Virus record (IMG/VR): IMGVR_UViG_3300042384_000211
Location: 64,001-128,000 of that record
Reading direction: 5' to 3' (one strand)
DNA: 64,000 nucleotides
Origin: a virus
Under the pieces are notes generated by a model that saw only the letters and a program-made list of their open reading frames with translations, did not search any database and was not told the DNA's origin. Numbering within the stretch: position 1 is the stretch's first letter; every line of letters begins with the position of its first letter. A program made the position numbers and the translations under genes. Of this stretch, positions 52,192-54,660 are shown piece after piece.

Positions 52192-52587
52192 TTATTCCGA
52201 AATATGATCTTTTTTAATTTCTCTTACTGGGTCGTTAAACTGTTCAGCAAGGGCATTTTTAATATCAACTCGCACATATCCAACATCGCGTATGTGTAAT
52301 GCTCTACGCCCAATTTCTTCTAATGGAAGATTGTCTATTTTGGCTTTTTTAAAATCATCTTCTAACGACCAAACATATTCGTGATGTTGGATTAGTTGCT
52401 GTATAAGTGTATGCAGTTTAGATATACCCGTTTCGTCCATTTGCTCACTGTAGAATTTAACTTCTTCGGCATTAGCATCGTTGGTTTTACTGCTTTTAAC
52501 TATAGCAATACAATATCGATCAACTATTTCAATGACTGGGAATTTCATATAGATATTTATACAGTAAAGGACTCTCCACATCCACAC
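52192..52587 (-). CDS. Hypothetical helical protein (start probably MKFPV, 52548)
   Basis: ORF track. Confidence 0.55.
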   Translation of the reverse strand: MWMWRVLYCINIYMKFPVIEIVDRYCIAIVKSSKTNDANAEEVKFYSEQMDETGISKLHTLIQQLIQHHEYVWSLEDDFKKAKIDNLPLEEIGRRALHIRDVGYVRVDIKNALAEQFNDPVREIKKDHISE

Positions 52588-52877
52588 CGGGCTGATTCAT
52601 TGGGATTGATGAACTCAAACCCTTCGTTGAGTCCTTTACGTTGATAATCAACTTGCATACCTTCTAGATATACTAGGTCTTTGGTAGAAACAATTACTGT
52701 TACTCCTTGCTGATTAATTTCAATGTCGCCTTCAGTAAGAATATCAGCAAACTCTAAAGTATATGCCATACCGCTACAACCCGTAGTACGAACACCTACC
52801 CGCATGCCGATACCTTTTCTACGATTGTCTAAGGCGGATTGCATTTTTTCTGCAGCTATTTTAGTTAGTGTGATCAT
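52557..52877 (-). CDS. iscA: Fe-S cluster carrier IscA
   Basis: TTGCSGMAY, EGFEFINPN...CGCGESF. Confidence 0.95.
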   Translation of the reverse strand: MITLTKIAAEKMQSALDNRRKGIGMRVGVRTTGCSGMAYTLEFADILTEGDIEINQQGVTVIVSTKDLVYLEGMQVDYQRKGLNEGFEFINPNESARCGCGESFTV

Positions 52878-52884
52878 TAATTTT

Positions 52885-53535
52885 TTATTTCCCAGGGTTT
52901 AACTGCCTATAAATATTTAAAACGTGCTGTAATTTACCTGTATCATAGTTCGTAATAGACATAAAATTTGCTATTTTATCAATTAATGTTTGACTATCAT
53001 TTATACTACTAAATTTAATTTCAAGTGTACTATCTTTATGCTTTGGGAGAGAATATACCCAATATGAATATTGATGATTATTAGCTAACCAATTTTGTTC
53101 TCCTGTTGGTATAACAGTGCCAGAGCAAAATTCTTCGTAAGTTGGCCAAGATGATCCTGCCAGTTGAGTATATGTATTTTTATCAGTGAGGTCAATTTTT
53201 GTTTTTTTATTTGCCCGGTAAACCATTTCGTTAATATCGTCCGGTGTAAATGTTATATAAATTACTTTTTTGCCTGTTTCAACTAATAACTCTACATTAG
53301 TAAAATGTCCTATTATAACATCTTTATTTGGTAATTTTTTAATAATTATATCTTGGGGCAAACTCGAATTAACATGTATAAAACCGTGAGCTACCGAAGA
53401 GTGCATTGAGCCGTTTTCGTCGGGATAACTTTCACTATTTCCTAGTAAAATACTGCATAGTGCTCCTATTAAATGCCCTCCGCTTCCCGCAGGAAAGCAC
53501 ACAACAATATTTTGGTTTTTCTTATAAGTATTCAT
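52885..53535 (-). CDS. Sulfotransferase-like/P-loop hypothetical protein
   Basis: CFPAGSGGHLI; Y..LAGSSWPTYEEF motif. Confidence 0.45.
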   Translation of the reverse strand: MNTYKKNQNIVVCFPAGSGGHLIGALCSILLGNSESYPDENGSMHSSVAHGFIHVNSSLPQDIIIKKLPNKDVIIGHFTNVELLVETGKKVIYITFTPDDINEMVYRANKKTKIDLTDKNTYTQLAGSSWPTYEEFCSGTVIPTGEQNWLANNHQYSYWVYSLPKHKDSTLEIKFSSINDSQTLIDKIANFMSITNYDTGKLQHVLNIYRQLNPGK

Positions 53536-53552
53536 TTTACTACATTTTATTT

Positions 53553-53938
53553 TTAATTATTTTTCTTACGATAATCCTCTATAGCACTTTTAATAGCGTC
53601 TTCTGCTAGAACACTACAGTGAATCTTAACTGGTGGAAGCGCAAGTTCCTCAGCAATCTCAGAGTTTTTAATCATTTGGGCTTGGTCCAATGTGCGACCT
53701 TTTAGCCATTCAGTGACAAGACTGCTGCTGGCAATTGCACTTCCGCAACCATAAGTTTTGAATTTGGCATCTGTGATGATATTGTTTTCTACTTTTATTT
53801 GAAGTTTCATAACATCACCTGTCATCCGCAAGCTGGGGCACCGACGATTCCGGTCCCAACTTGCGCATTCTCCTTATCTAAAGATCCTACATTTCTTGGA
53901 TTTTCATAATGGTCAAGTACCATTTTTGAATAGCTCAT
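53553..53938 (-). CDS. iscU: Fe-S scaffold IscU, interrupted by an 8-nt insertion (53938..53822 plus 53825/53819..53553)
   Basis: MSYSKMVLDHYENPRNVGSLDKENAQVGTGIVGAPACG* then, in another frame, GDVMKLQIKV..KFKTYGCGSAIASSS..LPPVKIHCSVLAEDAI. Confidence 0.9.
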
Positions 53939-54566
53939 ACAACATTTCCTTTGTAATTAAACATTTTGTTCCTTTACTAGAATTTTCTTTAACAGGAATA
54001 AAGTGTAAATTATATATATGTCCCATAACTTTAGGTGGCACATTATTGTCAAATCCCACTCTTACACTATATTTGTGATCTAAGCTATATCCTATTTTGC
54101 TTCTTTTTTCATAATTCTCTAATACTGATAAATCATTCTTCTCTGACCAATAATGAACTTTACGTCTGTATTTTTTAAATTCTGCATAGGCCAGACTGTC
54201 TGGTGGATAAATTTGTCCTTTTGCAATCCTGGTTGCTCTTGCTTTTCTTTTGCTTTCTTCGGATACAATCCTGCCTGTATTACCTTTGGATATTTTTTGC
54301 TTATGAGATTCAGACATTGTCTTTCCTTCCCAATACCCTCTGGCTAAATTGGCTAAACTATTTGGATGGTTTAAGGACACTCCAAACATAGGATTATTTT
54401 CACCTTGTTTAGCTTCACTTGCTTTTTTACGCCATGCATCTGATCTATTATTAGCTGCCCATCTGCGGGAACAAATAGGCCCGCAAAATCTGCGCCTTAA
54501 TTCTTTTTTTCCTGCTTTGGGTAAAATAAATTTATTACTACAACATTCGCAAATTTTTTCTAGCAT
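53913..54566 (-). CDS. Homing endonuclease (Zn finger + NUMOD3 + HNH-like), overlapping the iscU 5' end
   Basis: CECC..FCGPIC, GENNPMFG, MSESHKQKIS, LDHKYS...NL....EN.SK; start reassigned to MLEKIC. Confidence 0.8.
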   Translation of the reverse strand: MLEKICECCSNKFILPKAGKKELRRRFCGPICSRRWAANNRSDAWRKKASEAKQGENNPMFGVSLNHPNSLANLARGYWEGKTMSESHKQKISKGNTGRIVSEESKRKARATRIAKGQIYPPDSLAYAEFKKYRRKVHYWSEKNDLSVLENYEKRSKIGYSLDHKYSVRVGFDNNVPPKVMGHIYNLHFIPVKENSSKGTKCLITKEMLYELFKNGT

Positions 54567-54660
54567 ATAGGATTCTCGTATTGTTCTATTATTTAGTCCG
54601 TTACGAAATTCCATAAGTGTATTACATAGTAACACTATTTATATGGTAGTGTAAATGATT

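Follow-up and report, generated by a model that had tools for sequence, protein, structure and literature searches.

An interrupted iscU gene in a phage contig

The DNA analysed here, called the window, is a 64,000-nucleotide (nt) stretch covering positions 64,001 to 128,000 of the IMG/VR virus record IMGVR_UViG_3300042384_000211. Its source is a 140.8-kilobase (kb) viral contig that is ~40% complete by CheckV. Since related contigs reach 330-520 kb, the phages of this group are jumbo phages. The minus strand of the window carries an iscU gene, which codes for an iron-sulfur scaffold protein and is broken into an N-terminal half (N-part) and a C-terminal half (C-part) by an insert of 8 nt, GGA-TGA-CA. 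Comparison with related alleles suggests that the insert is a short coding gap, which ribosomes would skip by hopping from one Gly codon to another, giving canonical IscU. We estimate the probability of this reading at roughly 0.7.

The N-part (53822..53938; all window features given here are on the minus strand) begins with ATG at 53938, with the Shine-Dalgarno (SD) sequence AAGGA 9 nt ahead of it. It runs for 38 codons ending GAPAC(37)G(38), followed by TGA, and matches positions 2-35 of the Pfam NifU_N profile (E 8e-11). The C-part (53553..53819) lies in a different frame and matches positions 33-124 of the same profile (E 2e-36). It reads GDVMKL...YGCGS...LPPVKIHCS...KKNN and then TAA; its open reading frame (ORF) as listed starts MTGDVMKL and ends at 53553. 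The IscU residues Cys37, Asp39, Cys63 and His105-Cys106, and the LPPVK motif, are all found across the two halves, in agreement with the initial annotation, which had described both as otherwise intact. The C-part shares 95% protein identity and 73% nucleotide identity with the intact allele L003. No second iscU copy was found in the 140.8-kb contig, which is itself incomplete.

At the junction the minus strand reads GCT TGC GGA TGA CA GGT GAT GTT ATG. The Cys37 codon (53830..53828) is followed by GGA (Gly38; 53825..53827), here termed the take-off codon, and directly 3' of it by the stop codon TGA (53822..53824). A 2-nt spacer, CA (53820..53821), separates the stop from a second Gly codon, the landing codon GGT (53817..53819), after which come GAT GTT ATG for Asp39-Val-Met, with the Met41 codon at 53810..53808. 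Removal of exactly 8 nt restores APACGDVMK, as had been noticed before. A free-standing homing-endonuclease-like gene (53913..54635; 240 amino acids (aa) as listed; Pfam NUMOD3, E 9e-8; phrog_5104) lies upstream, and its ORF (54635..53913) overlaps the start of iscU by 26 nt, an overlap that had likewise been reported.

Interrupted iscU alleles share a Gly-stop-Gly junction

The window was compared with other viral loci and alleles, which are designated by L numbers. Among the 80 viral loci nearest by C-part protein, 74 are uninterrupted (GCN TGY GGN GAY GTN) and five have 7- or 8-nt inserts at the same site. Viral contigs were then searched with three pattern scans of decreasing bias. Both sides of the junction were fixed in the first scan, and the upstream side plus T-R-R in the second. 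The third was blind to the junction and used only a coding pattern from the N-part, A-[QH]-VGTG-x-VGAPAC. The pooled scans yielded 77 distinct interrupted and 69 intact alleles, with about 30 junction types.

The form of the junction is GGN, a stop codon, a spacer and GGN GAY GTN throughout, with GGN at the take-off position of all interrupted alleles. Inserts are 5-10 nt long and cover all three frames. The spacer ranges from -1 nt (L240, GGT TA|GGA) to 4 nt, and all three stop codons are used. Clades mix different insert lengths. The junction-blind scan gave 55 distinct contexts, of which 52 are interrupted and two intact, with L238 as a single aberrant case. In 52/52 of these interrupted alleles the codon right after the take-off Gly is a stop (TGA in 24, TAG in 15, TAA in 13). 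The scan that placed no condition downstream of the stop returned GGN GAY GTN after the spacer in every true iscU match, and the GDV codons at the landing site show codon-like conservation. Nine distinct alleles, drawn from different metagenomes, have exactly the junction of the window, GGATGACA. The insert is thus not a sequencing error, a source that the initial annotation had called unlikely. Among published phages only distant intact iscU genes surfaced (Acinetobacter phage MD-2021a and phage C48C1).

Wobble matching of the take-off with the landing codon was considered as a further conserved feature and rejected, as a hand count gave no enrichment over chance.

The aberrant allele L238 has no second Gly codon; the triplet before its GAT is GAC, which overlaps the stop. 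It nevertheless has a hairpin with 15/15 pairs, AGGAG and an endonuclease of the 205-aa type, all of which are described below.

A conserved RNA hairpin and an AGGAG element precede the take-off codon

Sixty distinct junction regions were aligned and analysed with RNAalifold. The program predicts a 15-bp RNA hairpin, made of an 11-bp stem and a 4-bp apical stem, that occupies 53827..53865 in the window. The 3' arm is formed by the Pro-Ala-Cys codons together with the G that opens the take-off codon; in the window its GCUUGC pairs with an upstream GCAAGU. Two pairs covary among the 60 alleles, 18:48 (AU33/CG24/UA2/GC1) and 21:45 (UA40/CG8/UG8/GC3), and both link third codon positions nine to ten codons apart. 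In the alignment 97.3% of cells are paired, a share that falls to 33-44% if the partner is shifted by 1-3 columns; 500 shuffles gave no value of pairing or covariation as high as the observed one. The structure includes invariant U.G pairs, which tie it to the sense strand, so it acts as RNA.

The hairpin distinguishes interrupted from intact alleles. At least 14 of the 15 pairs are present in 77/77 interrupted alleles (mean 14.6/15, -24.9 kcal/mol), whereas intact alleles average 9.1/15 pairs and -12.8 kcal/mol. The window segment itself has a folding z of -3.4. No Rfam family matches the hairpin region, and on the 3' side of take-off RNAalifold detected no structure conserved among the 60 alleles. 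The weak stem GCUUG/CAGGU that the initial annotation had drawn around the stop does not hold up, as it competes with the stronger conserved GCAAGU/GCUUGC hairpin and is absent from other junction classes.

A small hairpin can also be drawn 3' of the take-off site in the window (53808-53825). In it AUGAC(A), from the stop and spacer, would be paired with the Asp-Val-Met codons, as (U)GUCAU or UGUUAU, and the landing GGU would be looped out. The 6-bp AUGACA/UGUUAU form is limited to the junction class of the window, and other classes do not keep it.

A second element, the SD-like AGGAG, lies within the coding sequence of the N-part, 4 nt 5' of the hairpin (53870..53874). A search within 18 nt of the stem found AGGAG in 75/77 interrupted alleles and in 0/69 intact ones. 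Between its end and the stem lie 3, 4 or 7 nt. Since the motif is read in two codon phases (AAG GAG and AAA GGA GAT), it is selected as nucleotides and not as protein. Related iscU genes with and without the endonuclease were compared, as the initial annotation had recommended. Hairpin and AGGAG are both kept in 21 interrupted alleles without an endonuclease gene. Three insert-less alleles with a cassette-like N-part have eroded elements (12/15 pairs in L236, 13/15 in L235, AAGGAA in L004). The two signals thus go with the insert, not with the endonuclease. The N-part of L236 retains AGGAG beside its decayed hairpin, as if an insert had been lost.

The cassette is associated with a homing endonuclease gene

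The endonuclease of the window carries a zinc finger (CxxC...CxxxC) at its N terminus, a NUMOD3 motif, and an HNH-like D-H...N...N motif at its C terminus. C29, C32, C51, C55, D186, H187, N209, N218 and K221 are invariant in 39 homologues. Pfam recognises NUMOD3 only. The fold matches HNH nucleases weakly, best 4h9d_A, the Gme HNH nicking endonuclease (VIA-align Z 4.5), and Foldseek against the PDB returned nothing at E <= 0.001. Matches to Cas9 HNH domains were not significant. Assignment of the protein to the HNH nucleases rests mainly on the motif.

Among alleles with enough flanking sequence, an endonuclease homologue lies directly upstream of 49/70 interrupted but only 2/67 intact alleles (Fisher p 7e-18, the rows not being independent). 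Most cassettes carry a 205-aa endonuclease, to which the 240-aa enzyme of the window is ~25% identical. The interrupted alleles are scattered over the iscU tree, with at least 10 state changes, 3 of which are forced by well-supported branches.

Alignments around the junction point to transfer of a defined segment. From -209 to +15 relative to the Cys codon the window is identical to L088 and L168 at 222/224 positions, a tract made up of the insert, the N-part and the 3' end of the endonuclease gene. Identity to L088 and L168 drops to ~72% immediately past the landing codon, with third-position mismatches. The proportion of synonymous sites that differ (pS) is 0.08 in the N-part and 0.84 in the C-part. 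Together these contrasts show that a conversion tract ends precisely at the insert. With L179 the window has only the N-part module in common (-103 to +15), and the endonucleases differ. The N-part of the window is 99% identical to those of L088, L168 and L179, while the C-parts have diverged and are saturated at synonymous sites. As judged from these comparisons, the N-part, hairpin and insert form a mobile module that spreads together with the homing endonuclease gene.

The initial annotation had suggested that the insert may destroy the target site of the endonuclease. At the level of the family a link between insert and endonuclease stands, both in the upstream association and in the tract edge. 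For the enzyme of the window it is less secure. Its subtype lies full-length upstream of an uninterrupted iscU in L035 (L035:2214-2912; 74% identical) and in L236 (70% identical), and a remnant is found in L088. Protection by the insert against the window's own enzyme is accordingly no more than a possibility.

Both halves of interrupted iscU alleles are constrained

Selection on the two halves, another check that had been proposed, was assessed from the ratio of nonsynonymous to synonymous differences (pN/pS). Over all pairs the ratios for the N-part and C-part are 0.25 and 0.19 in interrupted alleles, similar to 0.19 and 0.15 in intact ones. Because the cassette is mobile, the test was restricted to those pairs that share a junction type and whose C-parts are moderately diverged. 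For these pairs, pooled, pN/pS is 0.13 in the C-part at pS 0.30, and 0.21 in the N-part. Between L107 and its clade, pS is 0.31-0.46 in the N-part and 0.25-0.38 in the C-part, and C-part pN is only 0.02-0.03. N-part and C-part have co-diverged to a similar degree in this clade, so the insert is older than its split. Once the insert was removed in silico, another defect was seen in just one of 44 interrupted alleles checked (L114). On these ratios both halves of iscU evidently evolve under purifying selection.

A Gly-to-Gly hop would give canonical IscU from every variant

These observations led us to infer a hop, with the hairpin and AGGAG as its probable signals. The peptidyl-tRNA-Gly would sit on GGA in the P site with UGA in the A site. 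The transfer RNA (tRNA) would then detach from GGA, the messenger RNA (mRNA) would slide by 8 nt, and the tRNA would re-pair with GGU. Decoding would restart at GAU and produce a single canonical IscU chain (...APACGDVMK...).

The hairpin of 15 bp immediately upstream of the take-off codon is probably what drives the slide. On the 5' side of the P-site codon, about a dozen nucleotides of mRNA are covered by the ribosome, so that a GGN codon placed in the P site would leave the 3' arm entirely inside and the 5' arm outside. Each nucleotide slid forward would allow one more stem pair to form at the exit, and the final pair would use up the leading G of GGN. By refolding where the mRNA leaves the ribosome, the hairpin would draw the message forward by about one gap length and strip the take-off codon of its first G. 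The length of the 11-bp stem would fit the range of hop lengths. Pairing of mRNA at the exit site has been proposed to drive forward bypassing in T4 gene 60 (10.1101/2024.12.09.627546). AGGAG is a third conserved signal, with a putative role. As to the cassette, the insert most likely breaks the endonuclease target in the conserved DNA that codes for CGDVM, leaving the protein unchanged.

The diversity of the junctions argues for a hop. With inserts of 5-10 nt in three frames and with three stops, a Gly-to-Gly hop is the only single mechanism that would give canonical IscU in every variant. Re-pairing by a hop would also make single-base changes in the spacer neutral, which fits the mixed insert lengths within clades. 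The bypass put forward in the initial annotation is in this way strengthened by comparison, through the constant GGN-stop-(spacer)-GGN-GAY-GTN layout, the relatives that lack a second start, and the hairpin with AGGAG. Neither bypassing in iscU nor an association of iscU with homing endonucleases turned up in full-text literature searches.

Alternative explanations

The initial annotation had also offered a split gene, in which translation stops at TGA and restarts at the overlapping ATG (ATGA), so that chains of 38 aa and 90 aa (MTGDVMK...) join non-covalently as a working IscU. An ATG at the stop is indeed in frame with the C-part in the window and other GGA-TGA-CN alleles. Judging from the coordinates, folding of the hairpin would put AGGAG an effective 5 nt from this ATG, and hairpin-bridged SD sequences of such a kind occur in T4 genes. 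Genes that encode two chains after homing endonuclease insertion are also known, namely T4 topoisomerase and Aeh1 nrdA (10.1101/2022.08.31.505936). The arrangement is, however, not general. At the junction an in-frame ATG is missing from the classes of 6, 7, 9 and 10 nt and from four of the eight junction types of 8 nt. In L191, L186 and L189 the frame offers no start codon ahead of Cys63, and some alleles read GDVL without Met41. The start-less alleles have the same hairpin, AGGAG and Gly-stop-Gly layout as the rest. A split would moreover sever the cluster-ligand loop between Cys37 and Asp39. Restart is thus possible for the junction class of the window only, and we consider a split gene an unlikely explanation. 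Restart at Met41 was separately rejected as a general mechanism because of the GDVL alleles and because the GDV codons are conserved like codons.

Loss of function is less likely still. In that case a selfish cassette would recently have broken a dispensable auxiliary gene, and the halves would be intact for want of time. The recent acquisition implied by the ~99% identity of the window N-part and insert to L088, L168 and L179 fits this account, a phage iscU is presumably dispensable, and one interrupted allele (L114) has a further stop-containing insertion. Against it, C-part pN/pS is ~0.07-0.13 at pS ~0.3 within co-diverged clades of the same junction type, and 43/44 of the interrupted alleles checked have no further frameshift or stop once the insert is removed. 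Compensatory changes keep the hairpin and AGGAG even where the endonuclease has been lost, and the stop and GDV codons are invariant in kind over the ~30 junction types. Conventional recoding is highly improbable. As far as the frames go, inserts of 7 and 10 nt could be passed by +1 frameshifting, those of 5 and 8 nt by -1/+2 frameshifting and those of 6 and 9 nt by readthrough of the stop. This would add 2-3 residues between Gly38 and Asp39, and the 8-nt GGA-TGA-CN class would always add Thr-Gly, its ACN codon varying at the third base only. Three unrelated mechanisms would nevertheless be required at one site, and single-base changes in the spacer would have to switch between them. No slippery sequence is present, as GGA is unable to re-pair at -1 or +1, and the residue added to the ligand loop would differ without constraint among alleles (D, N, R, E, T, I, L, P or K). 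An assembly or sequencing artefact can practically be dismissed; the window does come from a metagenome-assembled contig, but its 8-nt junction recurs identically in different samples and the interrupted alleles number 77.

Several observations weigh against the Gly-to-Gly hop. The match between take-off and landing codons holds at GG only. The wobble base suits one tRNA in ~19 of the 30 junction types by hand count, near the ~53% expected by chance, and the window itself would move from GGA to GGU, a wobble mismatch. In gene 60 homologues, by contrast, the take-off/landing pair is always matched. The gap of 5-10 nt holds neither a take-off stem-loop nor an internal SD sequence, and compensation between insert length and AGGAG distance was looked for and none was found. 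The L238 junction, GGT TGT TGA C GAT GTA ATG, breaks the Gly-stop-Gly rule. The cassette of the window was acquired recently and its C-part may be intact for lack of time to decay, and the in-frame ATG makes restart possible at this particular junction.

Neighbouring genes and other insertions

An intact gene for an iscA/HesB-type A-type carrier, the iron-sulfur (Fe-S) partner of iscU, lies downstream (52557..52877; Pfam Fe-S_biosyn, E 1e-18). Between the two genes is an ORF of 216 aa (52885-53535) with no Pfam or PHROG match. In most relatives iscA directly follows iscU, so the ORF looks like an inserted gene. No tRNA genes, tRNA-Gly being the one sought, were found in the window or in the 140.8-kb contig, which represents ~40% of the genome by CheckV. 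ARAGORN reported a permuted transfer-messenger RNA-like gene outside the window (genome C1 60537-60993, complement) with the tag AEKANTNGVAKVSMGRGFRFGSRTDAAVLA. When the contig was scanned for GGN-stop-GGN sites that have open frames to either side and a strong hairpin upstream, the iscU site was the only one returned.

Other insertions were seen in related iscU genes. Besides its 7-nt Gly-stop-Gly insert, L114 (C-part at L114:3226-3600) has a second, in-frame insertion of 6 nt with a stop inside LPPVK. The region reads CCT CCG TAA CTA GTT AAG in place of CCG CCG GTA AAG; TAACTAGTTA is palindromic, and there is no matching take-off/landing pair. L146 and L167 have an insertion of ~1 kb right at the Cys63 codon (after YGC), which begins CLTSNAPVNTPT and looks like an intein with an endonuclease-like middle. 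Both also have the 8-nt insert GGATGACT. In these phages iscU is a hot spot for selfish elements.

Comparison with known bypassing systems

To our knowledge, T4 gene 60 with its homologues is essentially the one known system of programmed bypassing in bacteria and phages. The gene 60 bypass with its MobA HNH element is the closest known system to the iscU cassette (10.1101/2022.08.31.505936; PMC5009743). In both, a non-coding insert interrupts a highly conserved stretch of a phage gene, one that encodes an invariant protein motif. Both have a Gly take-off codon, a stop immediately after it and a Gly landing codon, as well as an upstream mRNA structure able to refold at the ribosome exit. In both, the insert travels with a neighbouring endonuclease gene, and it stays in lineages where the endonuclease is lost or replaced. 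The differences are also considerable. The gap is ~50 nt in gene 60 but 5-10 nt in iscU, where its length varies freely and it lacks the stem-loop and SD sequence of the T4 gap. The 5' hairpin of iscU is strongly conserved, with covariation, unlike the 5' stem-loop of T4, which is not conserved among gene 60 homologues. AGGAG 5' of the hairpin is peculiar to the iscU cassette. The host genes are different, iscU here and topoisomerase in T4, and no homology of the iscU endonuclease to MobA was shown.

Homing endonucleases are also associated with disruption of conserved genes in T4 gp39/gp60 and, with MobE, in Aeh1 nrdA, where function is kept as proposed here. In those genes the second ORF is a genuine one, with a start of its own and added N- and C-terminal tails, in contrast to most iscU alleles, which lack a second start.

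Shorter natural counterparts of gene 60 have long been presumed, and according to a 2016 review no natural stop-hops were known (PMC5009743). Synthetic stop-hops in E. coli (Weiss et al. 1987, as cited in PMC5009743) are described there as low-efficiency events in engineered constructs with matched codons. As proposed for iscU, a peptidyl-tRNA passes a stop to a nearby codon over a distance of a few nt. The iscU family differs in being natural, selected and mobile, with dedicated RNA signals. The inserts are also distinct from the byp elements of yeast mitochondrial genes, which are 27-55 nt long and are not known to have an endonuclease partner. They resemble the byp elements of Magnusiomyces capitatus mitochondria, as cited in PMC5009743, in being many short, mobile inserts that ribosomes would skip and in tolerating imperfect take-off/landing matches. 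Slightly less confidently than for the window alone, we conclude that the interrupted alleles probably represent the first known natural family of very short (5-10 nt) programmed stop-hops, with a signal set of its own, carried as a portable homing-endonuclease device in an active-site loop.

If this interpretation is correct, the family would provide a natural and diverse series of minimal hops, with ~30 junction types, gaps of 5-10 nt, three stops, and both matched and mismatched landings. Its signal set, an exit-side hairpin and AGGAG, would be simpler than, and different from, that of T4 gene 60. The alleles would amount to a ready-made mutational series for how refolding at the exit drives a forward slide and how little codon-anticodon pairing a landing needs. 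For the homing endonuclease, the insert would be a device that disrupts its target DNA in an active-site loop and leaves the protein unchanged. Because gene callers split or discard such genes, similar cassettes may hide elsewhere.

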